Positions 1,293 through 32,595 of a stretch of DNA of 64,000 nt are shown piece by piece. The translations under genes were made by a program, and so were the position numbers. Positions within the stretch are counted from its first letter, which is position 1. Every line of letters starts with the position of its first letter. The DNA is from an uncultured delta proteobacterium (GTDB lineage: Bacteria > Desulfobacterota > Syntrophia > Syntrophales > Fen-1087). Where the stretch lies: NCBI GenBank assembly GCA_963709485.1, contig CAVPWE010000006.1:11550-75549 (forward strand). The letters are read 5' to 3'. The notes under the pieces are model-generated. The model made no database searches. It worked only from the letters and a program-made list of their open reading frames with translations, and was not told the origin of the DNA.

Positions 1293-1377
1293 GAGTTAAT
1301 TTGTTGAAATATGTCTAAAAAAAATTATATAGGATGATTATGGAAGATAAGAACAATCCCTCCCGCGAGGCCCGGTG

Positions 1378-3051
1378 ATGCTGCAAGAAAAAACGGCGAT
1401 CCGGCTCCGGTCTTTGATGCTGTCGAGAGTCGCAATCGTCACGCTCTTGCTGGGCATCGCCATTTTCATGCACAGCAAAGGCGAAGCGTATCTGCCCGAG
1501 ATATCGCTCCGTGCGCTATACGGGGTCATTATCACATCCTACATCCTGTCGCTTCTCTATTATTTTCTTCCCCGTCTGGTCAAGAACGTCAAAACAAACC
1601 TCTACGTCCAGGTCATCGGCGACGTTGCAATGGTCACCGGCCTGGTTTACGCGACGGGCGGCATCAGCAGCATCTATCCGGTTTTTTACACACTGGTCAT
1701 CATTTATTCCGTTTTATTCCTGGGCAGGCGGGGCGGGCTGATCACGGCTTCCGCCTGCAGCATCTGCTATGGCCTCCTCCTCGATCTGGAGTACTATAAA
1801 TTTCTGACGCCCCCCCATACGGCCATGATCCGGGATTACCCGTTTGCGGCAAGCTATGTGTTCTCAAGGATCATCACCTACATAGTTTCCTTCTATCTGA
1901 TCGCCTTCCTCGCCATTTTTATCGTGGAACAGGAAAAGAAGACGAGAACGCTGCTCCGGGAAAAGGAAACGGCGTTCGACCAGCTCGATGTGCTGCACCG
2001 AAGCATCATCGAGTCCGTGGACACGGGCATTTTGACGATCAATCGCCGGGGCCAGATCAAATCCTTCAACCGGGCGGCGGAGGAAATCACCGGCTTTTCC
2101 TTCGACGAAATCGAAAACAGAAATATCGCCGATTTGTTCCCGGCGTACGGGGATTTTGTTGCGAAGATTCAGGCGGGGAGCAACCCGGAGCCGGAGCGAA
2201 GCCGGGTGGAGATACAGATCGACAGCAGGGAGAAAAAGCCGCTGACCCTGGGCTGTTCCCTTTCCTTTCTGAATGACGGACAAGGCAAAAGGATCGGGGA
2301 TATTATCGTCTTCCAGGATTTGACAGCCGTCAAAAAAATGGAGGCGAGTCTTGAAAAAAACAAGAAGCTTGCTTTTATCGGCGAAATGGCGGCGGGACTG
2401 GCCCATGAAATCAGAAACCCCCTGGCATCGATCGGCGGCTCCATTCAGGTTTTGAACAAAAGCCTCGCCCTGAGCAAGGCCGATGAACGACTCATGCAGA
2501 TCATTCTGAGGGGCAAGGATCAGCTTGAGAGTTTCATGAGGGATTTTCTCCTTCTGTCCAGACCGTCGCCGGGAAAGCCGGAAGACATCCGGATCACGGA
2601 TATGATTGAGGAGGTGCTCGAATCGATGCGCTACCTGCCGGACTGGCGGGGCGATATCGTGACGGTGAAATCTATTCAGGATCCGCTGCCCCTCATTCGC
2701 GCAAACAAGGCGGAAATCAGGCAGTTGATCTGGAACCTTCTCATGAATGCGGTCCAATCCATGCCGGACGGCGGCCGTCTGGGCATCGAAGCCGGACCGG
2801 ACAGGACGGATGCATCCGGTCCCTGTCTCGAACTCCGGATCAAGGACAGCGGCCGGGGAATCGCGGAAAAGGATGCGGGCCGGCTTTTCGAACCCTTTTT
2901 CACGACCCGGGAAAAAGGAATGGGAATGGGGCTGGCGATTGTCAACCGGATCGTGGACAGTCACAGCGGCAAAATAAAAGTAGACAGCCGCTCGGGCGAA
3001 GGGACGACTTTCACGGTATGGCTTCCCTGCCTGACGGAAGCGGAGAGATGA
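1378..3051 (+). CDS. pilS: PilS-like membrane sensor histidine kinase (TM helices, PAS, HisKA, HATPase)
   Basis: Hydrophobic N-terminus; PAS-like FNRAAEEITG; H-box LAHEIRNPL; N box NLLMNA; G boxes DSGRGI and GMGMGL; followed by a PilR-like regulator. Confidence 0.8.
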   Translation: MLQEKTAIRLRSLMLSRVAIVTLLLGIAIFMHSKGEAYLPEISLRALYGVIITSYILSLLYYFLPRLVKNVKTNLYVQVIGDVAMVTGLVYATGGISSIYPVFYTLVIIYSVLFLGRRGGLITASACSICYGLLLDLEYYKFLTPPHTAMIRDYPFAASYVFSRIITYIVSFYLIAFLAIFIVEQEKKTRTLLREKETAFDQLDVLHRSIIESVDTGILTINRRGQIKSFNRAAEEITGFSFDEIENRNIADLFPAYGDFVAKIQAGSNPEPERSRVEIQIDSREKKPLTLGCSLSFLNDGQGKRIGDIIVFQDLTAVKKMEASLEKNKKLAFIGEMAAGLAHEIRNPLASIGGSIQVLNKSLALSKADERLMQIILRGKDQLESFMRDFLLLSRPSPGKPEDIRITDMIEEVLESMRYLPDWRGDIVTVKSIQDPLPLIRANKAEIRQLIWNLLMNAVQSMPDGGRLGIEAGPDRTDASGPCLELRIKDSGRGIAEKDAGRLFEPFFTTREKGMGMGLAIVNRIVDSHSGKIKVDSRSGEGTTFTVWLPCLTEAER

Positions 3052-4427
3052 AAATGGCAAAAATCCTCGTTCTGGACGACGACAAGGGAATGAGAGAGTT
3101 TCTCGAAATCATGCTGGGCAGGGAAGGGTATGATGTCACTTCCGCCTTCGACGGTGAAAAGGCCCTGAACCTCTGCAAGAAAGTTCCCTTCGATCTGATT
3201 CTCACGGATCTGAAAATGCCCAGGATGGACGGCATCGAATTCCTGAAACGGGTGAAGGACATCAGCCCCGAAGCGATGATCATTCTGATGACCGCTTATG
3301 CTTCCGGCGAAACGGCCGTCTCCGCGATGAAGGAGGGAGCCTATGACTATATCGAAAAAAATTTCGACATTGAAGACCTGGCGCGGCTGATCCGGGAAGC
3401 GCTGAACAAGAAGGGGATCAAGAAGAGCGACGCCCAATTCATCAGAGAGGTGGAAGAAGCGGTCTCCTTCGGGGGGATGATCGGAAAGAGCAAGGAAATG
3501 CTCAGGGTCTATGCGACCATCAAAAAGATAGCGGGCACCGCGGCCAATATACTGATTCTCGGTGAAAGCGGCACCGGCAAGGAGCTGGTTGCCCGGGCCA
3601 TCCATGAAAACAGCCCGCGCAAGGGATTGCCTTTTGTCATCATCAACTGCGGGGGAATACCGGAAACGCTCCTCGAATCGGAATTCTTCGGGTACATGAG
3701 AGGATCTTTCACGGGGGCCCACGCCGACAAGCCCGGCCTGTTCGAGGCGGCAAGCGGCGGCACGATATTCCTCGATGAAATCGGAGATTTGCCTTCGATT
3801 CTGCAAGTAAAGCTTTTACGCGTCGTACAGGAGAAAACCTTTCGGCGCATCGGGGGTGCGGAGGACATCAAAGTCAATGTCCGGATCATCTCGGCGACCA
3901 ATCAGAATCTTTCGGCAAAGGTCAAGGACAACACCTTCCGGGAGGATCTCTACTACCGTCTCAATGTCATTCCCATCCACCTTCCACCCCTGCGGGAAAG
4001 AAGGGACGACATCCCCATCCTGGCGAAGCACTTCATCGAAAAATACTCCCGGGATTTCGGAAAGGAAGTCAAAAATATATCCGTCTACGCACTGGAGCTC
4101 CTGATGAATTACCAATTTCCCGGAAACATCCGCGAGCTTGCCAACATCATCGAGCGCAGCGTCGCACTCGAATCGTCCAACATCGTTCTGCCGGAGAATC
4201 TCCGATTGTCGGAAACCCGGGAGGCGGCCGGTTCTTTCCCCGATTATCGGATTGCCGGTGAGGGCGTTGACCTGAATGAGGAACTGGCCCATATCGAGAG
4301 GCAATGGATTCTCAGCGCCCTCGAAAAATCGAAAGGATCCAAGACCAAAGCGGCGGAACTGCTGCACGTGACCGTCGATTCCCTGCGCTACCGCATTGAA
4401 AAGCTGGGAATGGAAACGGATTCATAA
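3048..4427 (+). CDS. pilR: PilR-like sigma-54-dependent response regulator (REC, AAA+, HTH)
   Basis: REC LTDLKMP; Walker A GESGTGKE; GSFTGA variant of GAFTGA as in PilR; FLDEIG; REDLYYRL; C-terminal HTH. Start 3048 or 3054. Confidence 0.8.
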   Translation: MKMAKILVLDDDKGMREFLEIMLGREGYDVTSAFDGEKALNLCKKVPFDLILTDLKMPRMDGIEFLKRVKDISPEAMIILMTAYASGETAVSAMKEGAYDYIEKNFDIEDLARLIREALNKKGIKKSDAQFIREVEEAVSFGGMIGKSKEMLRVYATIKKIAGTAANILILGESGTGKELVARAIHENSPRKGLPFVIINCGGIPETLLESEFFGYMRGSFTGAHADKPGLFEAASGGTIFLDEIGDLPSILQVKLLRVVQEKTFRRIGGAEDIKVNVRIISATNQNLSAKVKDNTFREDLYYRLNVIPIHLPPLRERRDDIPILAKHFIEKYSRDFGKEVKNISVYALELLMNYQFPGNIRELANIIERSVALESSNIVLPENLRLSETREAAGSFPDYRIAGEGVDLNEELAHIERQWILSALEKSKGSKTKAAELLHVTVDSLRYRIEKLGMETDS

Positions 4428-4435
4428 AATATTTC

Positions 4436-4467
4436 TTGACATCCCTTCCGCTTTGCCTTTATATGAT
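4436..4467 (+). promoter_or_regulatory. Candidate sigma-70 promoter for leader peptide/ABC operon
   Basis: TTGACA at 4436-4441, followed 17-20 nt later by AT-rich TTATATGAT. Confidence 0.55.
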
Positions 4468-4486
4468 GGCAAGAGGAACGTTACTG

Positions 4487-4576
4487 ATGAAAAGTCAAAA
4501 TGTCATTGATCGCCGGGTTGTCCGTTTTTTCGCTTTCTTCAGCTTTTTTAGCGAGGTCTGCCTGCCGCGCTCATGA
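4487..4576 (+). CDS. Phe-rich attenuator leader peptide (29 aa, MKSQNVIDRRVVRFFAFFSFFSEVCLPRS)
   Basis: SD GAGGA at 4473-4477; ATG 4487; 6 Phe codons in 8 (4526-4549); TGA 4574-4576; overlaps the antiterminator arm. Confidence 0.8.
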   Translation: MKSQNVIDRRVVRFFAFFSFFSEVCLPRS

Positions 4577-4609
4577 CATGACTTGAGCCATGACGCCGCG
4601 GGCGGACCT
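4554..4609 (+). promoter_or_regulatory. Antiterminator hairpin of the Phe attenuator
   Basis: AGGUCUGCCUGC (4554-4565) pairs with GCGGGCGGACCU (4598-4609), 12 bp with two G-U; extended by UCAUG/CAUGA; sequesters the terminator 5' arm. Confidence 0.75.
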
Positions 4610-4636
4610 TTTCGAGCTGCCCGCGGCTTTTTTTTT
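4595..4636 (+). terminator. Intrinsic terminator (attenuator) upstream of the ABC operon
   Basis: GCCGCGGGC (4595-4603) / GCCCGCGGC (4619-4627) stem, then 9 T (4628-4636). Confidence 0.85.
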
Positions 4637-4692
4637 GAAGGCCGTGGAATCAGATCCATGGCTTTTTTTTATCTTTTTTCGAGGAGGACGGG

Positions 4693-5904
4693 GTGATGAA
4701 TAAAATCATGAGATGGACGAATGCGATGGGCATGCTGGCCGTGTTGACCTTCTTCGCCACAGCGCCGATGGCCGATGCCGCGGCCATTAAAGTTGGGGCG
4801 GCGATCAACATGACCGGCCCGGCTTCCACCTGGGGCCAGTACCATGCCAGGGGGCAGCAGGATTACTTCCGCTATGTCAACGAAGTCAAAGGAGGCGTAG
4901 CCGGGAGAAAGATCGAGATGATTCTGGTCGATACGGGTTACAAGGTCCCGGAAGCCGTCGCCGCCGTGAGGAAGTTCGCTGTTCAGGACCAGGTGGACAT
5001 GATCGCCACCTGGGGGGCCGGGGAGGGTCTGGCCGCGAAGCCCATCATCCAGAACTACCGGATTCCCACAATCAATTACTCCACAAGCTGGGAAATCCTG
5101 GAGGCGCCGGTCGATTACATGTATCTTCCCTTCGGCAGTTACCGGATGGATTGCTATGCGGTGATTGACTACATCCGGACCATTCACAAGGGAAAGGAGG
5201 CGCCCAAGATCGGCCTGCTGACCTACAACAATGCATACGGCCGCTCCATTCACAAGCCGACCCGCGAGTATGCCGCCCAGCAGAAGGTGCAGATTGTTGC
5301 GATCGAGGAATTCCCCCCGAAAACGGTGGACCTGACGACGGAGCTGCTGCGGCTCAAGCAGAAGGGCGCGGAATACATCTTCATGCAGATGCTGCCCGCC
5401 GCCATCATCACGACATTCAAGAGCGCCGACCGGATCGGTTATGCGCCGCAATTCTTCGGGACATGGACATCCACGGACCCGGACTTCTTCAAGCTTGGAC
5501 AGGGCCTGATCCGGGACCGGCTGAACATGCAGTTCCCGGGCGGTCTGCCCTCAGACAACACGAAGGGCATTGCGCTCATGAAAGAGCTTTGGAAGCGCTA
5601 CAAGACGGTTGACAAGTTCGATGCGGCCTACTGGGAGGGCGTTGTCATCGGCATGATCATGGAGCGGGCCTTTGTCCGGGCGCAGGAATCCTTCAAGCAG
5701 ATCAACCGGGAAACGATCAACAAGGCGATGGAATCCTTCCGGAACGAGGATTTCGGAGGCCTTGTGCCGAACGTCACCTACAGCCGGAAAGACCACGGCG
5801 CATCTTTCAAGGCCAGAATGGTCCGGGTGCGGGAGGACGGTTCCCTGATCCCGCTGACCAACTTCTACACGCCCGGACAAGAGAAGATCAAACTGGCGAA
5901 GTGA
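4693..5904 (+). CDS. LIV/HAAT-family ABC transporter periplasmic binding protein
   Basis: Signal peptide; IKVGAAINMTGP and VNEVKGGVAGRKIEMILVDTGY typical of LivK-like PBP1 fold; SD GAGGAGG. Confidence 0.88.
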   Translation: MMNKIMRWTNAMGMLAVLTFFATAPMADAAAIKVGAAINMTGPASTWGQYHARGQQDYFRYVNEVKGGVAGRKIEMILVDTGYKVPEAVAAVRKFAVQDQVDMIATWGAGEGLAAKPIIQNYRIPTINYSTSWEILEAPVDYMYLPFGSYRMDCYAVIDYIRTIHKGKEAPKIGLLTYNNAYGRSIHKPTREYAAQQKVQIVAIEEFPPKTVDLTTELLRLKQKGAEYIFMQMLPAAIITTFKSADRIGYAPQFFGTWTSTDPDFFKLGQGLIRDRLNMQFPGGLPSDNTKGIALMKELWKRYKTVDKFDAAYWEGVVIGMIMERAFVRAQESFKQINRETINKAMESFRNEDFGGLVPNVTYSRKDHGASFKARMVRVREDGSLIPLTNFYTPGQEKIKLAK

Positions 5905-5917
5905 GGCCGGGAACCCG

Positions 5918-6745
5918 ATGAAATCACAGCGCAGCCGGCCGGGCATCTTCAGCACGCGGAATCAGGAAGACGCCACGGCTGAACTGGACATTTCGAATCT
6001 CTCCCTGCATTTCGGCGGGGTCAGGGCATTGCACGACATCGATCTGGCCGTTCACACCGGCGAACTGGTCGCGGTGATCGGTCCGAACGGCGCGGGCAAG
6101 ACCAGCCTCCTGAACTGCATGACCGGTTTCTACCGGCCGCAGCAGGGCAGCATCCGCTTCAACGGCCGGGACATCACCCATTTTCCCCCCCATGAACTGG
6201 TGCGCATCGGCATCGGGCGGACCTTTCAGAACATCGAGCTGTTTCCGGGGATGACGGTGTTGTCGAACATGCTGCTGGCGCGGCACATCCACTGTCGCTA
6301 CGGCCTCGGCGCCGCGACGCTCTTCGCGGCCTCCGCCCGGAAAGAGGAGATCCGCCACCGGCTCGTTCTGGAAGAGGTGATCGATTTTCTGGAGATGCAG
6401 GCGATCCGCAAGAAAACGGTCGGATCCCTTCCCTACGGTCTGATGAAAAGGGTCGAACTCGGGCGCGCCCTGGCGCTGGAACCGAGGCTCCTCGTCCTCG
6501 ACGAGCCTTTTGCCGGCATGAACCTCGAGGAAAAGGAGGACATGGTCCGGTTTCTCATCGAACTGAACGAAGCCTGGGGCCAGACCATGATCCTGGTGGA
6601 GCACGACATGTCCATTGTCATGAGCATTTCCCAGCGGATCATGGTCCTGAATTTCGGCGAGAAGCTGGCCGAGGGGACGCCGGAAGCGGTGCGGAACCAC
6701 CCGGAGGTGATCAAGGCCTATCTGGGTGACGCGGAATCCCTATGA
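5918..6745 (+). CDS. LivG-like ABC ATP-binding protein
   Basis: GPNGAGKT, RTFQN, LPYG, LDEP, EHDM, VIKAYLG. Confidence 0.92.
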   Translation: MKSQRSRPGIFSTRNQEDATAELDISNLSLHFGGVRALHDIDLAVHTGELVAVIGPNGAGKTSLLNCMTGFYRPQQGSIRFNGRDITHFPPHELVRIGIGRTFQNIELFPGMTVLSNMLLARHIHCRYGLGAATLFAASARKEEIRHRLVLEEVIDFLEMQAIRKKTVGSLPYGLMKRVELGRALALEPRLLVLDEPFAGMNLEEKEDMVRFLIELNEAWGQTMILVEHDMSIVMSISQRIMVLNFGEKLAEGTPEAVRNHPEVIKAYLGDAESL

Positions 6746-8661
6746 AGAAGGCATTGATGACGGCAAATCCGGCAGAAAAAACGCTTCCCCAGGTCCTGGC
6801 CCTGCAGGCCGAGCGCCTGGGTGCGGCGACGGCGATCCGCGAAAAGGCGCTCGGCATCTGGCAGCACTACTCCTGGGCGGATTATTTCCGCTACGTGAGG
6901 CATACGGCCGGCGGCCTGATGTCGCTCGGGCTGAAGCGCGGCGAACATGTCGGCATCATCCTGAACAACCATCCGGAATGGCTCTTCAGCGAACTGGGGG
7001 CCCAGTCGCTGGGCGCCGTCACGCTGAATCTGTTTACCTCCTCGATCACCGACGAGCTTTGCCTTGCCCTCAACCGGATCCAGGCGGCCCTTGTATTCGT
7101 CCAGGATCAGGAACAGGTCGACAAGCTCCTGGATGCCCGCGACCGGCTCCCGCACGTCCGCCGCGTCATCTATATCGACCCCACCGGGATGAGAAGCTAC
7201 CGGAACGAGCCCTGGCTGGTCGGCTTCGGCGAGCTGATCCGCATGGGGGAGACATGCGAACGGGAGCAGCCGGACCGCGTCCTGTGGGAGATGCAAAAAG
7301 GGGGCAGGAGCGAGACCGCCCTGATGATCCTGACCTCCGGGACGACGGGGCTGCCGAAGCTTGCCATGCTGTCCCACCGGAACCTGACGGCCATTGCGGA
7401 GAGCTGGGTCGAGGCCATGGCCATTCAACCGGGCGAGAACTGGATCTCCATGTCGCCGCCCGCCTGGATCGTTGACCAGATGTGGGGCGTCGGGGTCGCC
7501 CTGGTCGGCGGCATGACGATGAACTTTCCCGAAACCCCGGAGACCGTCACGGAGGATTTCCGTGAAATCGGACCGTCCCTGCTCATCACCGCCTCCCGGT
7601 TCTGGGAGGACCTCGCTTCCCGGATCATGGTGAAGATGTCCGACGCGGGCCTGATCAAACGAAAAATGTTCGACCTGGCCGAACGGATCGGCCGCAGGAT
7701 CGCGGCAAAGACATCCCGGGAGGAAAGCGTCCCATCTTACCTGAGAGCCCTGCACCGGCTGGCGTCGCTCATGGTTTACCGGCCCCTGCTTGACCGGATC
7801 GGATGCCTGAAGCTGCGCAGCGCCTTCACCGGCGGCCATCCCATCAGCCCGGATGTGATCGGCTTTTTCAGAACCATCGGACTCAACCTCAAACAGTGCT
7901 ACGGCCTGACCGAGGCCGGCGGCATCTTTCAGCTCCAGCCGGACGACCAGGTCAAGCTGGAGACCGTGGGAAAGCCCCTGCCGGGAACGCTCGTCCGGCT
8001 TTCGGAAGACCAGGAGGTCCTGGTCCGCAGCGACGCCGTGTTCTCCGGCTATTACCAGGACTTCAAGTCGACGGAGGCCGCGTTCACCGACGGCTGGCTG
8101 AGAACCGGCGACGCGGGCTATCTGGACAAGGACGGCCACTTGCTGATCATCGGACGCAGGGAGGAGATCATCCGCAACAAGAGCGGGGAGGCCTTTTCGC
8201 CGGATTTCATCGAAACCCGCCTGAAGTTCAGCCCCTACATCAAGGAGGCCGTTGTTTTCGGGGAAGGGCGCCCCTACATCACGCTCATGATCAACATCGA
8301 TTTCGGAAATGTCGGCGTCTGGGCGGAGGAGCGGATGATCCCCTACACGACGTATATGGATCTGTCCCAGCAGCCGGCTGTGGAGGAGCTGATCCTGGGC
8401 GAGATCCGGCGGATCAACGCACAACTGCCGGACATCATGAAAGTCCGGAAGTTCTTCCTCCTGTACAAGCTCCTGGATGCCGACGACGAGGAGCTGACCC
8501 GGACCGGCAAGGTGAGGCGGCGTTTTGTCTACGGCCTTTACATCAAGCTGATCGAGGCCATGTACCGCGACCAGCGGGAGGTCGACGTCAAGGCGAAGGT
8601 CCAGTATCGGGACGGCCAGATCGGCAAGGTGGAAACGAAGGTAAAAATCATACCGGTTTAA
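6742..8661 (+). CDS. AMP-forming acyl-CoA synthetase (long-chain FACL-like family)
   Basis: TSGTTGLPK, YGLTE, GWLRTGDAG, ELTRTGKVRR. Confidence 0.9.
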   Translation: MKKALMTANPAEKTLPQVLALQAERLGAATAIREKALGIWQHYSWADYFRYVRHTAGGLMSLGLKRGEHVGIILNNHPEWLFSELGAQSLGAVTLNLFTSSITDELCLALNRIQAALVFVQDQEQVDKLLDARDRLPHVRRVIYIDPTGMRSYRNEPWLVGFGELIRMGETCEREQPDRVLWEMQKGGRSETALMILTSGTTGLPKLAMLSHRNLTAIAESWVEAMAIQPGENWISMSPPAWIVDQMWGVGVALVGGMTMNFPETPETVTEDFREIGPSLLITASRFWEDLASRIMVKMSDAGLIKRKMFDLAERIGRRIAAKTSREESVPSYLRALHRLASLMVYRPLLDRIGCLKLRSAFTGGHPISPDVIGFFRTIGLNLKQCYGLTEAGGIFQLQPDDQVKLETVGKPLPGTLVRLSEDQEVLVRSDAVFSGYYQDFKSTEAAFTDGWLRTGDAGYLDKDGHLLIIGRREEIIRNKSGEAFSPDFIETRLKFSPYIKEAVVFGEGRPYITLMINIDFGNVGVWAEERMIPYTTYMDLSQQPAVEELILGEIRRINAQLPDIMKVRKFFLLYKLLDADDEELTRTGKVRRRFVYGLYIKLIEAMYRDQREVDVKAKVQYRDGQIGKVETKVKIIPV

Positions 8662-8674
8662 GGAGATTTCTCGA

Positions 8675-9553
8675 ATGGACTTTTTCGTTCAACTGCTCGT
8701 CAACGGCATCAGCATCGGCCTGCTGTACGGCCTGTCCGCGATGGGCTTTGTCATGATCTTCAAATCATCCAGCGTCCTCAATTTCGCCCATGGTGAACTG
8801 CTTGCCTTCGGGGCGTTCCTGTTCCTGGCGATGGTCTCCTGGGCCAAGCTGCCCCTGCCGGTGGCCTTTCTGGCGACGCTGGCCGGCTGTTTCTCCCTGG
8901 GTTTCCTTGTGGAGCGCGTCTTCCTGCGCCCCCTCATCGGCGAGCCCCTGATTTTCGTGATCATGCTGACCGTCGGCCTGGCCTCGATGTTCAAGGGGCT
9001 GCTGCTGCTGGTGTGGGGCGGCAACCTTCAGACCTATCCGGACTTTCTGCCGGAGGCGCTCGGCATCCGCTGGGGCGTCATCCAGGTTCCTCCCGTCTAC
9101 GTGGCCGCGATGGTCATCGGAATGATCTTTCTGTGCCTCTTCGGCCTGTTTTTCAAATACTCCTCCCAGGGAATCTACATGCGTTCGGTGGCGGACAATC
9201 AGAAAGCCGCCCTTTCCCTGGGGGTTCACGTGAAGCGGGTCTTTGCGCTGTCCTGGGCCATCGCGGCCCTGGTGGCCGGGATGAGCGGCATCGTTCTGGG
9301 CATCATCAACGGCATCAACGTGCACGACCTGAGCGCCATCGGCCTCAAGGTGTTCCCCGTGGTGATCCTGGGCGGGCTGGATTCCATCGGCGGGGCCATC
9401 ATCGGCGGCATCATCATCGGCCTGCTGGAGACCTTCACGGGCGGCTACCTGTCGCCGTCGCTCCGCGACGTGGTTCCCTACATCGTTCTGGTGCTGATTC
9501 TGCTGGTGAAGCCCTACGGCCTCTTCGGCCTGAAAGAAATCGAGCGGGTATGA
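8675..9553 (+). CDS. LivH-like ABC permease
   Basis: VLNFAHGE, MRSVADNQKAALSLGV, ILGGLDSIGG, KPYGLFG. Confidence 0.9.
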   Translation: MDFFVQLLVNGISIGLLYGLSAMGFVMIFKSSSVLNFAHGELLAFGAFLFLAMVSWAKLPLPVAFLATLAGCFSLGFLVERVFLRPLIGEPLIFVIMLTVGLASMFKGLLLLVWGGNLQTYPDFLPEALGIRWGVIQVPPVYVAAMVIGMIFLCLFGLFFKYSSQGIYMRSVADNQKAALSLGVHVKRVFALSWAIAALVAGMSGIVLGIINGINVHDLSAIGLKVFPVVILGGLDSIGGAIIGGIIIGLLETFTGGYLSPSLRDVVPYIVLVLILLVKPYGLFGLKEIERV

Positions 9554-10626
9554 CGATGCGAAAACCGAGATTCCATCCCTGCGGAAATTACCGGGAACAC
9601 TACAAGGAGGAGCTGACGGTCTTCGAGACCGATTTCGGCCGCCTCTGGCTGGGCATCGGTCTCGCTTTCCTGTTTCTGGTCCTGCCCTGGGTCGTGAAAC
9701 CCTACATGCTCTATGTCCTGAACATGATCGGCATCGCCGCGATCGCGGCGGTCGGCCTGAACATCCTGATCGGATTCACCGGCCAGATTTCCCTCGGCCA
9801 CGGTGCCTTTTTCGGCGTCGGCGCCTATGCGGCCGGGATCATGGCCACTTCCGCGGATCTGCCCTTTATCCTGGTCCTGCCGGCCGCAGCCGCCGTGACA
9901 TCGCTGGTGGGGATGATCTTCGGGATCCCCTCGGTCCGCCTGAAGGGCCTCTACCTGACCATTGCCACCCTGGCCGGCCAGTTCATCATCGAGTACATCC
10001 TGCTGCACTGGGAGGGTCTGACGAAGGGCACCATGGGGATCACGCTGCCGAAACCCTCCCTGCTCGGATGGGAGATGAGCGGCGACCGGAGCTTCTTCTT
10101 CGTCATCTTTATCTGCCTGATCGGGATGACCTGGTTTGCCGTCAACCTCATCCGCACGAAATACGGCCGGGCCTTCATTGCCATTCGGGACAACGACCGG
10201 GCGGCCGAGGGAATGGGCATCCCCATCTTCCGCTACAAGCTGCTGTCCTTCGCCATCAGCTCCTTCTACGCCGGGTTCGCCGGCGCCCTCTGGGCTTACT
10301 ACATGGTGAGCATCACCACGGAACCCTTCAACCTCGGCCTTTCCGTCGAATACATCGCCATGGTGATCATCGGCGGCATGGGAAACATCACCGGTTCGAT
10401 CTTCGGCGCCGTTTTCATCACCGGGCTGAACGAGGTACTGCGTTTTGCGACGGACGCCCTGATGAACATGGGGGTGTTCACAAGCACCGGCCTGAACATG
10501 GCGCCGCTGCGCGAATTCGCCTTCGGCGCGGCGATCGTGCTTTTCATTCTCTTCGAACCCCGGGGGCTGGCGGAGGTCTGGCGGATCATCCGTTCGGGCT
10601 TCCGGCTCTGGCCGTTTTCATACTGA
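9550..10626 (+). CDS. LivM-like ABC permease
   Basis: GLNILIGFTGQISLGHGAFFGVG, GRAFIAIRDN, EPRGL. Real start at ATG 9550, overlapping the livH stop. Confidence 0.9.
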   Translation: MTMRKPRFHPCGNYREHYKEELTVFETDFGRLWLGIGLAFLFLVLPWVVKPYMLYVLNMIGIAAIAAVGLNILIGFTGQISLGHGAFFGVGAYAAGIMATSADLPFILVLPAAAAVTSLVGMIFGIPSVRLKGLYLTIATLAGQFIIEYILLHWEGLTKGTMGITLPKPSLLGWEMSGDRSFFFVIFICLIGMTWFAVNLIRTKYGRAFIAIRDNDRAAEGMGIPIFRYKLLSFAISSFYAGFAGALWAYYMVSITTEPFNLGLSVEYIAMVIIGGMGNITGSIFGAVFITGLNEVLRFATDALMNMGVFTSTGLNMAPLREFAFGAAIVLFILFEPRGLAEVWRIIRSGFRLWPFSY

Positions 10627-10638
10627 AGGAGTTTGGCG

Positions 10639-11439
10639 ATGCGGGACATCCTGCTGCAGGTGAACAACATATCCGTGGTCTATTCCGATGTGATCCAGGT
10701 CCTCAAGGGGGTTTCCCTGGCGGTGGAAAGGAAGCACATCGTCTCGCTGCTGGGCAGCAACGGCGCCGGCAAGACGACGACGCTGAAGGCCGTCTCCGGC
10801 CTCCTCAAACCGGAAAACGGCGAAGTGACGGACGGGACGATCCTCCATGCCGGCAGACCCATTCACAACCAGCCGCCCGAAACCATCACCCGCCTCGGCA
10901 TCATTCAGGTGCTGGAAGGCCGCCAGCCTTTCAAATACCTGACCATCGAAGAGAACCTGAGGGTGGGGACGGCCACGCGCTGGGGAAAGGCCTACAAAGA
11001 GGACCTGGAGCTGGTCTACGGTTATTTTCCCGCCCTGCTGAAACGAAGAAAGTCGCTCGCCGGCTACTGCAGCGGCGGGGAACTGCAGATGCTTGTCATC
11101 GGCCGGGCCCTGATGGCCCACCCCCAGCTCCTCCTGCTGGACGAGCCGTCGCTGGGGTTGGCGCCGCTTGTGGTCAGTGAAATATTCAGGATCATCAAGA
11201 GAATCAATGAAGAGCAGGAAACCACTATTGTCCTGGTCGAGCAGAATGCCCGGATGGCCCTCCAGATCGCCCATTACGGGTACGTGATGGAAAACGGCAA
11301 GATCGTCATGGAAGGCCCGGCTAAAGATCTGGTTGAAAATCCCGATATCAAAGAGTTCTATCTGGGCATGGCCGCCTCCGGCGCCGCAAAATCCTACCGG
11401 GACGTCAAATCCTACCGGCGACGCAAGCGCTGGCTTTGA
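10639..11439 (+). CDS. LivF-like ABC ATP-binding protein
   Basis: GSNGAGKTT, SGGELQM, LDEPSLGLAP, VEQN. Confidence 0.92.
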   Translation: MRDILLQVNNISVVYSDVIQVLKGVSLAVERKHIVSLLGSNGAGKTTTLKAVSGLLKPENGEVTDGTILHAGRPIHNQPPETITRLGIIQVLEGRQPFKYLTIEENLRVGTATRWGKAYKEDLELVYGYFPALLKRRKSLAGYCSGGELQMLVIGRALMAHPQLLLLDEPSLGLAPLVVSEIFRIIKRINEEQETTIVLVEQNARMALQIAHYGYVMENGKIVMEGPAKDLVENPDIKEFYLGMAASGAAKSYRDVKSYRRRKRWL

Positions 11440-11585
11440 CAGTGAACAAGTCATTCAACGAACCGTAACGTTTCATTCAAATCATGAGTCTGCGAATCAC
11501 CGTTCCTTCTTCCATGCCTGTCTTTCAAAATAATTATATTTAATAATAACGATATGTTAAAAATTATTTCGCTCGGCCTTCCGTG

Positions 11586-11602
11586 TTGGCACGTTTATTT
11601 CA
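11586..11602 (+). promoter_or_regulatory. Possible sigma-54 promoter (imperfect -12)
   Basis: TTGGCACG-TTTA-TTTCA: perfect -24 element, TTTC instead of TTGC; AT-rich tract upstream. Confidence 0.35.
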
Positions 11603-11655
11603 TATCTATTGGTCAAAAGAAAGAATCAATAACCGATCAAAAGGAGGAATAGATC

Positions 11656-11931
11656 ATGAAAAAGAATCTGGCAACCCTGGTGATGGCAGCGGCGGTCGTT
11701 TTGATCACGGCAGGTTTCAGCTTCGCTGAATATGCCGCGGGCGGCGCGGACAATTTCCCGTATTTTCAGCTTGGATGCCTGATCATCGGCGGGCTCATCA
11801 TGATCTCCCTGAAATACAAATACAGCAGGATCTACACCAGCGAAGTCGTCGGCGCCTTCGCCCTCTACACGCTCTATATCTCCCTCTTCACCTCGCCGGT
11901 GCTGGAAGCCGTGAAGAACTGGCTGAGCTAA
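11656..11931 (+). CDS. Small hypothetical membrane protein
   Basis: 91 aa; strong SD AAGGAGG; signal-like N-terminus plus two hydrophobic segments; own terminator. Confidence 0.75.
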   Translation: MKKNLATLVMAAAVVLITAGFSFAEYAAGGADNFPYFQLGCLIIGGLIMISLKYKYSRIYTSEVVGAFALYTLYISLFTSPVLEAVKNWLS

Positions 11932-28844: not shown

Positions 28845-30070
28845 AATACGTCATTCTGCTCGGCGACGGGATGAACGACTACCCCGTGGAGAAACTGGGG
28901 GGCAAGACGCCGCTCGAGTTCGCCCGCACGCCGAACATGGACCGCATGGCCGGCGAAGGGACCCTCGGCCTGATCGACACCATTCCGTCCGGTCTCAAGC
29001 CGGGCAGCGATGTGGCCAACCTCTCCGTGCTGGGCTACGATCCCGTCGAATGCTATGCGGGCCGGGGACCGCTGGAAGCGGCCAACATGGGCGTCGCGCT
29101 CGGGCCGGACGACATCGCCTTCCGCTGCAACCTGGTGACCCTGGGGCCGGAACCGGACCCGGTCATGGCGGACTTCACCGCCGGCCACATCAGTTCCGAA
29201 GAGGCCGCCCGCGTCATCGCCGACCTCGACAAGTCCCTGGGAAACGCTGCCTTTCAGTTCTATCCCGGTGTCAGCTACCGGCACCTGATGGTCTGGCGAA
29301 ACGGCAGGGGCCCTCTGGAGACGACGCCTCCCCATGACATCACTGGAAAGGCGACCGGCAGCTATCTTCCCAGGGGAGCGGGCGAGGCGGAGATCAACGA
29401 TCTGATGCAGCGCTCCCGGAACGTCTTGAAAAATCATCCGGTCAGTCAGGCCCGGCTTGCAGCCGGGAAAAAGCAGCCCACCTCGATCTGGCTGTGGGGG
29501 CAGGGCAGGGCGCCCCGAATGGTCCGATTGACCGATCAGTACGGATTCCGGGGCGGGGTGATCTCGGCGGTGGACCTTCTGAACGGGATCGGCGTCTATG
29601 CAGGGCTGCAGGTGATCCGGGTGACTGGCGCAACGGGCTACACGGACACCAACTACATCGGGAAGGCGGAGGCGGCGCTGGCCGCTCTGAGAGAGATGGA
29701 TTTCGTCTTTGTCCACGTGGAAGCGCCCGATGAAATGAGCCATGAAGGCAATCTGGAAGGGAAAATCCGGGCGATCGAGGATTTCGACGACAAGGTTGTG
29801 GGAACCGTCCTGCAAGGGATCGGGACGTTCGCCGACTGGCGCGTCATGGCCCTGAGCGACCATCCGACCCCGCTGAAGATCCGTACGCACGCGGCAGACC
29901 CCAGCGCCTTTGCCGTCCTGTCTTCTTCCGTTCACGAGAACATGAAAAAGGGATCGTCGTTCCATGAGAAAGACGCCCGCGCCGGCGGCATCCTGATCAG
30001 CCCGGGTCATGGGCTCATGGACCTGTTCATCCGAAACTGGAAAACCTTTATTGCAGAAAATCGTCCCTAA
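28841..30070 (+). CDS. apgM: Cofactor-independent phosphoglycerate mutase family (ApgM; proposed homoserine kinase clade)
   Basis: GDGM, TPNMD, PGSDVA, GVSYRH, HVEAPDEMSHEG, SDHPTP; overlaps hom stop. Confidence 0.85.
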   Translation: MKYVILLGDGMNDYPVEKLGGKTPLEFARTPNMDRMAGEGTLGLIDTIPSGLKPGSDVANLSVLGYDPVECYAGRGPLEAANMGVALGPDDIAFRCNLVTLGPEPDPVMADFTAGHISSEEAARVIADLDKSLGNAAFQFYPGVSYRHLMVWRNGRGPLETTPPHDITGKATGSYLPRGAGEAEINDLMQRSRNVLKNHPVSQARLAAGKKQPTSIWLWGQGRAPRMVRLTDQYGFRGGVISAVDLLNGIGVYAGLQVIRVTGATGYTDTNYIGKAEAALAALREMDFVFVHVEAPDEMSHEGNLEGKIRAIEDFDDKVVGTVLQGIGTFADWRVMALSDHPTPLKIRTHAADPSAFAVLSSSVHENMKKGSSFHEKDARAGGILISPGHGLMDLFIRNWKTFIAENRP

Positions 30071-30110
30071 GGTCCGTGCGATCCATAGGGCAGACGGTAA
30101 GGAGAAAAAG

Positions 30111-30767
30111 ATGGCGGGAAAATTATCGAAACAGGAGCTGAAAGAACCGGATAAATTTCAGGTCATGCTGGCAAGAGTCATGACCTGGGTGACGGAGAAC
30201 AAACAGAAGATTTACGTCATTTCGGGGAGTGTGACCGTCATTCTGCTCATTGCCGCAGGCTGGTACATCTACAGCCTCAACTATGAAAAGAGCGCCCAGC
30301 AGATCTACGCCCGCGTTTACGGATCTCCTGCAGCGGAGAACCCTGTTGCTGTCTACAAAGAGGTCATCTCCCAGTACCCCCGCAGTCATGCCGCTGCCAT
30401 CGCCCACTACCGGCTGGCCAGCGTTCATTACCTGCAGAACGACTTCGATGCCGCGATCAAGGCGTATGAGGCATTCCTCAGACAGACTTCCGACAGCAAC
30501 GAGTTGAAGCCGCTGGCATATGCCGGCCTGGGCTATTGCTACGAATCGAAAAACGACCTCAAGAACGCCCTGGCCAATTTTGAAAAGGCGGCGAGCCTGA
30601 AATCGGGACAGATCCTTGAAGGCATGAATCAGCAGAACATCGCCCGCATTTACGAAGCCATGAACGACCGGGCAAAAGCCCTCGATCATTACCAGAAGGC
30701 CCTCGGGAAGAATGTCGATCCCGCCTCGGAACTGCTGATCAAGAGAAAAATTGCGACGCTGAGCTGA
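30111..30767 (+). CDS. Membrane-anchored TPR protein (YfgM-like)
   Basis: KQELKEPDKF, one TM segment, TPR-like repeats. Confidence 0.75.
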   Translation: MAGKLSKQELKEPDKFQVMLARVMTWVTENKQKIYVISGSVTVILLIAAGWYIYSLNYEKSAQQIYARVYGSPAAENPVAVYKEVISQYPRSHAAAIAHYRLASVHYLQNDFDAAIKAYEAFLRQTSDSNELKPLAYAGLGYCYESKNDLKNALANFEKAASLKSGQILEGMNQQNIARIYEAMNDRAKALDHYQKALGKNVDPASELLIKRKIATLS

Positions 30768-30789: not shown

Positions 30790-32595
30790 ATGTCCGTTTT
30801 GATGTCTGGAAATGAGGCGATCGCCAGAGGCGCCTACGAGTGCGGGGTGCGTTTCGCATCCGGGTATCCGGGAACGCCCAGCACGGAGATCATGGAGGCC
30901 TTTGCCCGATATGACGGCGTCTATGCCGAATGGGCCCCCAATGAAAAGGTGGCCCTCGAGGTGGGCATCGGCGCCGCCCTGGCCGGCGCAAAGGCCCTGG
31001 TCACCATGAAACACGTGGGCGTCAATGTGGCGGCCGATCCCCTCTTCACGGCCAGTTACACGGGCACCAACGGAGCCCTGGTGATCATATCGGCGGACGA
31101 CCCCTCCCTGCACAGCTCACAGAATGAGCAGGACAACCGGAACTACGCGAAGTTTGCCAAGATTCCCATGCTGGAACCGGCCGATTCGCGGGAGGCGAAG
31201 CAGTTCGTCAAACTGGCTTTCGAGATCAGCGAAAAATTCGACACGCCCGTATTCCTCCGGCCCACGACGCGCGTCGCCCATTCCAAGTCGGTGGTTGAAA
31301 TGGATGAACCGCAGGCGGTGATGGACCAGACGGCCATTCAAATCAATGCCGCCAAATACGTCATGGTCCCCATCAACGCCCGCGCCCGCCGGGTGGAAGT
31401 CGAAAAGCGAACGCTGGCGCTTCGGGAATTCGCGGAGACCTTGCCCGAAAACAGGATGGAGATCAACGGCACGGAGGTCGGCATCATCACGGCGGGCATT
31501 CCCTATCATTACGCCAAGGATGTCTTCCCCGACTATTCCTACCTGAAGCTGGGCATGGTCCATCCGCTGCCGGTCCGGATGATCCGGGAATTTGCCTCAA
31601 GGGTAAAAAAAGTTTACGTGGTCGAGGAGCTGGACCCCTTCATTGAAGAGCAGGTCCGGGCCATGGGGATTGACGTCATTGGAAAAGATGTCTTTCCCTA
31701 CACGAATGAATTCGATCCCGGCGTGATTGAAAAGGCAATCCGCGGCGAGGCCCGGAAACCGCTGAGCCTGCCGGCCGTCACCATCCCGCCGCGACCGCCC
31801 AATCTCTGCCCGGGATGCCCGCATCGCGGGCTCTTTTATGTTCTCGGAAAATTGAAGGCCTTCGTGACGGGGGACATCGGCTGCTACACGCTCTCCTACA
31901 TGAAACCGCTGGAAGGCCTGCATTCCTGCATCTGCATGGGGGCCAGCATCGGCATGGCCCACGGCATGAGCAAGGCCCTGAAGGAAAAGGGCAAAGGGAA
32001 AGTCGTGGGAGTGATCGGCGACTCCACCTTCATCCATTCCGGAATCACGCCGCTCCTGAACATGGCCTACAACAAGGGCGATGCCGTCATCGTCATTGCG
32101 GACAACCGGACCACAGCCATGACAGGCATGCAGGAACATCCGGCAACCGGCTTCACCCTGCAGGGCGAGCAGACCAAACAACTGGATTTTGCGGGGCTGG
32201 CTGCCGCGCTGGGTGTCGAAAGCGTCCGCACCATCGATCCCTACGACATCAAACAGACGCGGAGCGTCATGAAGGAAGAACTGGCCAGACCGGGCGCATC
32301 GGTGGTGATTTCAAACCGGTCCTGCGTCCTGTTCAAGCGGCACCGGACCGGCCCGCAGAAACCGCTTCGTGTCGATCCGGAAAAATGCATCGGTTGCAAG
32401 GTCTGTCTCGGCCTCGGCTGCCCCCCGATTTCCTGGAGGAAGTTCGAAGATATGCCGGAAAGCGAGATCCGGAAAAATGCAAAGAAACAGGAAGGCCATT
32501 CCGTTATCGACCGGAATCTCTGCAACGGCTGCACGGTGTGCCGGCAGCTTTGCAAGACCGGCGCCATCGGTGAGGAGGATTCGGCAAATGAATAA
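30790..32595 (+). CDS. iorA: Indolepyruvate:ferredoxin oxidoreductase alpha subunit
   Basis: GNEAIARG, YPGTPSTE, MKHVG, SSQNEQD, CPGCPH, GDIGCY, GDSTF, TAMTG, two ferredoxin CxxCxxC motifs. Confidence 0.95.
   Translation: MSVLMSGNEAIARGAYECGVRFASGYPGTPSTEIMEAFARYDGVYAEWAPNEKVALEVGIGAALAGAKALVTMKHVGVNVAADPLFTASYTGTNGALVIISADDPSLHSSQNEQDNRNYAKFAKIPMLEPADSREAKQFVKLAFEISEKFDTPVFLRPTTRVAHSKSVVEMDEPQAVMDQTAIQINAAKYVMVPINARARRVEVEKRTLALREFAETLPENRMEINGTEVGIITAGIPYHYAKDVFPDYSYLKLGMVHPLPVRMIREFASRVKKVYVVEELDPFIEEQVRAMGIDVIGKDVFPYTNEFDPGVIEKAIRGEARKPLSLPAVTIPPRPPNLCPGCPHRGLFYVLGKLKAFVTGDIGCYTLSYMKPLEGLHSCICMGASIGMAHGMSKALKEKGKGKVVGVIGDSTFIHSGITPLLNMAYNKGDAVIVIADNRTTAMTGMQEHPATGFTLQGEQTKQLDFAGLAAALGVESVRTIDPYDIKQTRSVMKEELARPGASVVISNRSCVLFKRHRTGPQKPLRVDPEKCIGCKVCLGLGCPPISWRKFEDMPESEIRKNAKKQEGHSVIDRNLCNGCTVCRQLCKTGAIGEEDSANE

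Follow-up and report, generated by a model that had tools for sequence, protein, structure and literature searches.

A predicted phenylalanine-sensing attenuator before a transporter and acyl-CoA ligase operon, and the lineage-wide family of switches to which it belongs

The window analysed here is a stretch of 64,000 nucleotides from an uncultured delta proteobacterium of the order Syntrophales (contig CAVPWE010000006.1 of assembly GCA_963709485.1, positions 11,550 to 75,549 of the forward strand), and all positions are counted from its first letter. Before an operon for a LIV-type ATP-binding cassette (ABC) transporter with an embedded acyl-CoA ligase it holds an element which, judged from sequence comparison, is most likely a leader-peptide (ribosome-mediated) transcription attenuator that senses charged tRNA-Phe, and we put the probability of this at about 0.85. 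The reasons are a Phe run that is conserved at the codon level, a reading frame that is kept, compensatory changes in the first terminator, bases that serve two alternative pairings, and paralogous elements where the codon run matches the operon that follows. A sequence-only reading of the same DNA, made without any relatives for comparison, had already proposed a ribosome-mediated Phe attenuator, and the comparative evidence supports it. That reading was unaware of the large, lineage-wide family of which the element is a member.

All parts of the element are on the + strand between the stop codon of a gene for a sigma-54-type response regulator (4425-4427) and the start of the binding-protein gene at 4693, in the order promoter, Shine-Dalgarno (SD) sequence, leader open reading frame (ORF), two terminator hairpins and a second SD sequence. 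The leader ORF (4487-4576) has 29 codons and a TGA stop codon at 4574-4576, and its predicted product, MKSQNVIDRRVVRFFAFFSFFSEVCLPRS, has the run FFAFFSFF at 4526-4549, with six Phe in eight codons. The sequence-only reading had pointed out this ORF and its SD sequence, the latter here read as AGAGGA at 4472-4477, 9 nt before the ATG at 4487. We number the pairing segments from a weak 5' partner of region 2, region 1 (4512-4524), which in the minimum free energy (MFE) fold pairs with region 2 in the untranslated state (-15.0 kcal/mol for the segment from 1 to 2). Regions 2 and 3 form the antiterminator hairpin at 4553-4610, with an outer stem of 4553-4565 against 4598-4610, an inner stem that spans the stop codon, and an energy of -35.2 kcal/mol; the 12-bp pairing of 4554-4565 with 4598-4609 that had been noticed earlier is part of this stem, and two of its pairs are G-U. 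Regions 3 and 4 form the first terminator, T1, at 4595-4636 (-25.7 kcal/mol), where the position, the nine U at 4628-4636 and the conflict with the antiterminator are as first described and the stem is 11 bp long (4595-4605 with 4617-4627) instead of 9 bp. The conflict arises as the 3' strand of the antiterminator (4598-4610) overlaps the 5' arm of T1 (4595-4605), which makes the two pairings exclusive. A second terminator hairpin, T2, formed by regions 5 and 6 at 4637-4670 and found both by a terminator scan and in the MFE fold, was overlooked in the earlier picture of a single terminator; its stem pairs 4637-4648 with 4655-4666, its U-tract at 4663-4670 has 8 U, and its energy is -16.7 kcal/mol. 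A pairing of regions 4 and 5, 4621-4631 with 4637-4647 (-17.9 kcal/mol), could prevent T2. The U-tract of T1 ends 56 nt before the GTG at 4693, as had been said, and the binding-protein gene has a strong SD sequence, GAGGAGGA, at 4681-4688.

The promoter at 4436-4465 is sigma-70-like, with TTGACA at 4436-4441, a spacer of 18 nt and TATATG at 4460-4465, and would place the start of transcription of the operon near 4470. A strict consensus promoter scan did not call this pair, because the -10 box ends in G. A TTGAC box is found 100-132 nt 5' of region 2 in 28/28 orthologous loci examined. The sequence-only reading had named a transcription start of the operon 3' of 4636 as incompatible with an attenuator, and the promoter scan finds no promoter-like site there. 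The sigma-54 activator gene upstream prompted the idea of a sigma-54 promoter for the operon; this was rejected, as the sole TGGCA-like stretch in the leader is unconserved among orthologues.

Orthologues of the binding protein (E<=1e-40) are present in 33/41 related genomes, and the 271-nt leader matches as DNA (E<=0.001) in 27/41 of these, in 16/29 genera. Such a match across genera is unusual for intergenic DNA. A Phe-rich leader ORF precedes the binding-protein gene in 28/30 orthologous loci (26 found by script, and L020 and L022 by reading in the correct frame), so that the conserved Phe run which the sequence-only reading had predicted is there. The two remaining loci have no leader call, one being truncated by the end of its contig and the other, L024 in genome G024, having a different upstream region; this locus lacks both the Phe leader and region 2, and carries a different GC-rich hairpin. 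An alignment of 28 orthologous leader sequences, A1, is the basis of the counts of codons and pairs given here. The orthologous leaders have the Phe-rich run near the end of the ORF, followed by [E/G]-V-C-L/P, and the six aligned Phe positions are occupied by Phe in 24, 26, 28, 25, 27 and 21 of the 28 sequences. In the Phe codons TT is almost invariant and the third base is a mix of T and C (e.g. 16 T and 12 C), and the mean identity to the majority base at codon positions 1, 2 and 3 is 0.845, 0.869 and 0.698. The leaders differ in length by multiples of three and the N-terminal half is free to vary. By this codon pattern the Phe run is selected at the level of codons. The conserved C-terminal residues of the leader overlap region 2, and RNA pairing thus accounts for them.

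Public RNA data were also considered. Of the six runs listed, four were compared, and all consist of contigs, with a share of 0.04-0.16 in five and of 0.30 in the sixth, which is of unknown kind. A contig from the RNA of one relative covers 4526-4576 of the leader, another, whose kind is uncertain, reaches from 4398 to 4621, and the rest are inside the binding-protein gene. These runs bear neither way on attenuation, as contigs cannot show where transcripts end.

The RNA structure is conserved together with the codons. The 211-nt leader has an MFE of -77.5 kcal/mol (z = -4.3), and none of 200 shuffled sequences was as stable. In A1, T1 is 96.4% paired, and three of its pairs have double changes, with UA and CG exchanged in 7 sequences and AU and GC in 5. 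T2 is 89.2% paired and 7/9 of its pairs have double changes, which bears out the earlier expectation of covarying stems. None of 500 shuffles reached the pairing values observed for T1 and T2 in the terminator state. The antiterminator helix is 91.7% paired across the 28 sequences and the helix between regions 4 and 5 95%, compared with 35-43% in slid controls. The bases common to antiterminator and terminator vary only in such a way that both pairings survive: where a T1 pair changes from A-U to G-C, the antiterminator partner stays U, so that U-A becomes U-G (6 sequences), and a U/C position with a double role opposite a G of the antiterminator likewise changes only with both pairings kept.

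We propose the following mechanism. Transcription would begin at the sigma-70-like promoter near 4470, and a ribosome would translate the 29-codon leader. With sufficient Phe, the ribosome would reach the stop codon at 4574-4576 and cover region 2 (4554-4565), upon which T1 and then T2 would form and transcription would terminate before the operon. With low charging of tRNA-Phe it would stall on the early Phe codons (4526-4540) and cover region 1, and region 2 would be free to pair with region 3 (4598-4610) and block T1. The released 3' arm of T1 (4621-4631) would pair with the 5' arm of T2 (4637-4647), T2 would be disarmed as well, and RNA polymerase would read into the genes of the binding protein, the ATPase, the acyl-CoA ligase, the two permeases and the second ATPase. 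The geometry of the ribosome, the coupling of T2 and the dependence of read-through on Phe are the parts of this mechanism that we infer.

Folding with a masked ribosome agrees with the scheme for the window itself. A mask of 31 nt on the early Phe codons (4514-4544) gives a full-length MFE fold with regions 2:3 and 4:5 paired and neither terminator, whereas T1 and T2 form when the mask is moved to the stop codon (4559-4589) or left out; the sequence-only reading had suggested constraining the region near the end of the ORF, and with that region masked the terminators form. T1, defined as at least 7/11 pairs, was formed in 28/28 orthologous leaders in equilibrium folds with the stop-codon mask, and in local folds the segment from 2 to 3 is more stable than that from 3 to 4 in 23/28 orthologues. 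Several results weigh against the scheme. At equilibrium, the mask on the Phe codons gives the antiterminator in only 10/28 orthologues and the 4:5 pairing in only 6/28. The pairing of regions 1 and 2 is the weakest element of the switch, with 64.9% paired in A1, and the duplex beats shuffled sequences in only 10/28 orthologues, with p=0.23 in this genome. A ribosome stalled at the last two Phe codons would also probably cover part of region 2. Since the equilibrium folds of the orthologues are mixed, the model depends on the order of events during transcription. Regions 2 and 3, and also 4 and 5, would be transcribed before their competitors, and comparable stability may be enough for a kinetic switch of this kind.

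The most probable role of T2 is as the second of two terminators that are disarmed in series, where pairing of 2 and 3 frees region 4, and pairing of 4 and 5 blocks 5:6; we hold this coupling to be rather more probable than not, with a good deal less confidence than the attenuator as such. A second hairpin of -12 kcal/mol or lower is present in 25/28 orthologues, and the mean energies across orthologues, -14.7 kcal/mol for the segment from 4 to 5 and -15.5 kcal/mol for that from 5 to 6, are comparable. The rival explanation is that T2 is uncoupled from the leader, either as an independent and partly leaky second terminator or as a relic of a duplicated T1, and merely lowers the maximum expression. 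For this speaks the scarcity of 4:5 in the equilibrium folds, as well as the absence of T2 from 3/28 orthologues and from 14/42 loci of the wider family described below (28/42 have a further hairpin with a U-run no more than 80 nt away), and complementarity of 4 and 5 would be automatic if the 5' arm of T2 resembled that of T1. A strong uncoupled terminator with 8 U would on the other hand block the operon, and the 4:5 pairing of the window is as stable as T2 itself and can form before region 6 is made. The conservation of this helix far above the slid controls is also at odds with an uncoupled hairpin. Moreover, among paralogues whose stems differ, the T2 5' arm follows the T1 arm of its own locus: the T1 3' arm and the T2 5' arm pair with -16.05 kcal/mol within a locus and -14.42 kcal/mol across loci (28 loci; one-sided Wilcoxon p=0.0017, which overstates the case as the loci are related and not independent). 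A cruder test of own against cross pairing with all 42 loci gave no significant difference (p=0.15), which weighs on the other side. Taken together we regard an uncoupled T2 as unlikely.

To find out how far the element extends, a covariance model of region 2 through T1 (R1) was built on the 28 Phe-type leaders and two examples from named metagenome-assembled genomes (MAGs). It has matches (E<=0.01) in 146/151 sampled genomes of the order, in 61/62 genera, with several copies per genome. The score of 84.7 bits at the locus studied here is high by construction, as the locus is in the model. Five further copies were found in the source genome (E 1e-6 to 0.08), and each has a leader with a codon run of its own. 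A leader with VGNCVSVVIVQ is found before the gene of the acetolactate synthase large subunit (ilvB), one with FKSWYSYYYF before a DAHP synthase gene with a prephenate dehydratase gene 2.5 kb downstream, one with NWWWH before trpE and one with GWWR before a TrpB-like gene, all of these with 24-37 bits (E 1e-6 to 4e-3), and one with NWWWWT before trpB with 18.8 bits (E 0.08); the genes were named from their NCBIfam matches.

A census of five further genomes of the order, from five families, gave the same picture. The Phe leader is before the same binding-protein operon in 4/5 of them, leaders with mixed Tyr, Phe and Trp codons are before DAHP synthase, Trp leaders before trpE, trpD, a trpB-like gene, the gene for the alpha subunit of indolepyruvate:ferredoxin oxidoreductase (IOR; 2 genomes) and a PaaK-family ligase gene, Val leaders before ilvB and a gene like that of pyruvate:ferredoxin oxidoreductase (PFOR), and a Leu leader before leuA. 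In a sample of the phylum R1 has a match at E<=1e-5 in 42/151 genomes, 38 of which are outside the order (38/146 from the rest of the phylum), and twelve of these phylum-level matches were inspected in detail. In one genome outside the order a binding protein of 68% identity is preceded by a Phe leader with FGFFFFD, and Trp leaders are before IOR alpha in three more genomes. IOR alpha is thus preceded by leaders with 3-4 Trp codons on the same scaffold in six genomes (L064:5680-7998, L220, L237, L246, L250 and L254), among them the Deltaproteobacteria bacterium SM23_61 MAG (L064) with WWWW. In genome G082 a further Trp leader (L240) is found before a PaaK-family ligase gene, 1.5 kb upstream of the IOR leader. 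The Trp leaders on IOR and PaaK-like genes suggest that salvage of indoleacetate is controlled by Trp starvation.

Some members of the family have other targets. Tyr/Phe/Trp-rich leaders at four loci outside the order (L245, L247, L249 and L252) precede the gene for 2-amino-3,7-dideoxy-D-threo-hept-6-ulosonate synthase, an assignment verified with NCBIfam for L245 only; this enzyme is the archaeal-type entry to aromatic biosynthesis. The PFOR-like gene behind a Val-rich leader on the same scaffold (L230; G082:C1:2550620-2550697, minus strand) is possibly a 2-oxoacid oxidoreductase for the synthesis of branched-chain amino acids. A Desulfarculus sp. MAG (L055:350-1680) has a Phe-rich leader with FSFFFS and the same switch core before a gene like that of an MBL-fold hydrolase and not a transporter operon. 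A loose scan of genome contigs for the sequence pattern had 3 true loci (L055, L064 and L165) among at least 120 matches listed, and the rest are nearly all chance matches in GC-rich genomes.

That the codon run tracks the amino acid of the operon points to ribosome-mediated attenuation, unlike RNA that is controlled by a ligand or a protein. Antitermination that is independent of translation, by a protein or a small ligand and with an incidental ORF, or alternatively a small RNA or a hydrophobic micro-protein with terminators of its own, would fit the very strong sequence conservation of the RNA core from region 2 to T1 and the conservation of the C-terminal leader residues, and translation of the leader is a prediction. 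The C-terminal residues are however explained by RNA pairing, as they overlap region 2, and such control would leave no reason for the T/C variation exactly at the third positions of Phe codons, for a frame that is kept through indels of three next to a variable N-terminus, or for codon runs that switch with the operon between Trp, Val/Ile, Leu and aromatic residues among the paralogues. No leader family was matched by a search of 4300-4800 with Rfam cmscan (E<=10) either, which gave 14 weak and unrelated matches to small RNA, snoRNA, miRNA and lncRNA families. We therefore consider control without translation very improbable, and return to the attenuator and to what it controls.

The operon begins with the gene of a periplasmic binding protein of the family Peripla_BP_6 (4693-5904, + strand as for all its genes; GTG start, with an alternative ATG at 4696), followed by a LivG-like ABC ATPase (5918-6745), an AMP-binding acyl-CoA ligase of 639 aa (6742-8661), whose gene shares 4 nt with that of the ATPase, two BPD_transp_2 permeases (8675-9553 and about 9556-10626) and, at the end of the operon, a second ABC ATPase in the position of LivF (10633-11439). 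The genes were assigned from Pfam and NCBIfam matches, the binding protein from Pfam. The order of binding protein, LivG and ligase is kept in 30/30 orthologous loci. The best NCBIfam match of the ligase is FadD11-like with 268 bits against a cut-off of 950, the other matches are to fatty-acid and menE-type models, all below their cut-offs, and PaaK models are not among the NCBIfam matches. Its matches among solved structures are distant chains of luciferase or ACSL type and are uninformative. For the binding protein the closest solved structure is 3lkb (E 1.7e-32), which is named a branched-chain amino-acid binding protein.

As the acyl-CoA ligase is always in the operon, the substrate is most simply a carboxylic acid. 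Our tentative suggestion, which we would put somewhat below even odds, is that the products of the operon take up a carboxylic acid from which Phe can be made, most plausibly phenylacetate, and activate it to the CoA ester. The ester would be reductively carboxylated by IOR and the product transaminated to Phe. The grounds are the constant ligase, the Trp leaders on IOR alpha and PaaK-like ligase genes, precedents from Rhodopseudomonas palustris and Methanococcus maripaludis, and an iorA gene in the window (30790-32595; TIGR03336, 694 bits), which begins after a gap of 22 nt behind a gene at 30009-30767 with no family match. In the available part of the R. palustris study, LIV-type binding proteins mostly bind aromatic, fatty and dicarboxylic acids and not branched-chain amino acids, and are encoded beside CoA ligases (PMC3223731). 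In M. maripaludis, as cited in the available part of PMC4162585, aryl acids feed the synthesis of aromatic amino acids via IOR. Against an aryl acid stand the likeness of the ligase to long-chain fatty-acid ligases and not to PaaK, the amino-acid binder name of 3lkb, the presence in the genome of prephenate dehydratase (pheA), which makes de novo synthesis of Phe probable, and the lack of an attenuator before the iorA gene of the window. The whole chain, in which Phe starvation induces import of an aryl acid and CoA activation, IOR gives phenylpyruvate and then Phe, a parallel route gives Trp, one phylum-wide family of attenuators governs both, and a double terminator is disarmed by a single stalled ribosome, is as a whole a still more tentative proposal.

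The same attenuator would serve equally in a serious rival to the aryl-acid interpretation, namely that the operon imports Phe or other amino acids directly and that the ligase has another role or a second substrate. To induce the importer of a lacking amino acid is the simplest logic, LIV systems of E. coli take up Phe, and the names speak for it, both that of 3lkb and those of the NCBIfam matches, which are LivG-like and of the branched-chain amino-acid type. The ligase gene is however inside the operon in 30/30 loci, with its overlap of 4 nt with livG, and by general enzymology CoA ligases act on carboxylic acids and not on free amino acids. The paralogous Trp switches are also placed on IOR and on a PaaK-like ligase, that is on enzymes of aryl-acid salvage, and the annotation as LIV-type is a poor predictor of the ligand according to the available part of PMC3223731. 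Direct import of amino acids is for these reasons the less probable of the two, and on balance rather unlikely.

Directly upstream of the element are the genes of a PilS-like histidine kinase and a sigma-54 response regulator (1375-4427), and the same C-terminus of the regulator is found upstream of many orthologous leaders; the promoter of the operon is nevertheless sigma-70-like. A sigma-54-like -24/-12 element (TGGCAC, 5 nt, TTTCA) is found in 11583-11660, about 60 nt before a small gene at 11657 which encodes an N-terminus like that of a signal peptide, and it could be a target of the regulator (3018-4427).

Leader-peptide attenuation is textbook knowledge, but most known cases are on biosynthetic operons and come from Gammaproteobacteria, with some from a few other groups. 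The closest counterparts are pheL-pheA and pheM-pheST of E. coli (Rfam Phe_leader), which have the same short leader ORF with a Phe run, exclusive antiterminator and terminator, and a terminator before the first structural gene, and where read-through occurs at low charging of tRNA-Phe, as we suppose here. They differ from the element described here, which has no match in Rfam in sequence or structure, is found in a Desulfobacterota-type lineage, has two tandem terminators, and controls an ABC transporter and acyl-CoA ligase operon instead of pheA or pheST. The his leader of Salmonella and E. coli is described by a model of six segments, with A:B, C:D and E:F against B:C and D:E, and has the same chain of alternative hairpins where a freed segment propagates the signal to the terminator, although the coupling is putative in our case; in the element described here, hairpin 3:4 in the middle of the chain has a U-tract and is a terminator too, and two terminators would thus be switched off one after the other. 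Matching codon runs are likewise known from the classical attenuators of proteobacterial trp, ilv and leu operons, and are seen here in the leaders before trpE, trpB, ilvB and DAHP synthase. In contrast to those classical cases, the switches of this lineage are all built on the same homologous RNA scaffold and are detected by one covariance model, and the genes of IOR alpha, a PaaK-like ligase and a PFOR-like protein are also among their targets.

The CouP/CouB-type clusters of R. palustris resemble the operon, as far as the available part of PMC3223731 describes them, in that a CoA ligase is genetically linked to an ABC transporter and its LIV-type (COG0683) binding protein, but they are catabolic and induced by substrate, whereas the signal here would be Phe starvation and the ligase, encoded inside the operon, is of another type that is FadD11-like. 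In the available part of a paper from 2004 on regulons of delta-proteobacteria, attenuation is mentioned only for riboswitches (PMC545781). A search of the full-text literature, with subscription journals mostly, regulon databases and supplements outside its scope, brought up no description of such attenuators in this lineage, nor of a transporter and ligase operon behind a Phe attenuator or of an attenuated IOR. The mechanism is classical, and what is new is the lineage-wide scaffold, the Phe member on a transporter and ligase operon, the IOR and PaaK-like targets, and the tandem, apparently chained, terminators.

Across an order of anaerobic bacteria of Desulfobacterota type, a single scaffold recurs with codon runs for Phe, Trp, Val/Ile, Leu or a mix of aromatic residues. 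As the run indicates the amino acid that the operon serves, the family can be used for the annotation of gene function; it assigns a role related to Phe to a widespread LIV-type ABC transporter with an embedded acyl-CoA ligase, and gives IOR and a PaaK-like ligase an anabolic role related to Trp. The compact design in which two terminators may be disarmed in series is also of interest for RNA engineering. The old idea that anaerobes make aromatic amino acids from aryl acids becomes directly testable in this lineage. If it is true, these anaerobes would regulate a salvage from aryl acids derived from fermentation to aromatic amino acids, with the IOR and PaaK-like genes under Trp attenuators as the counterpart that leads to Trp.

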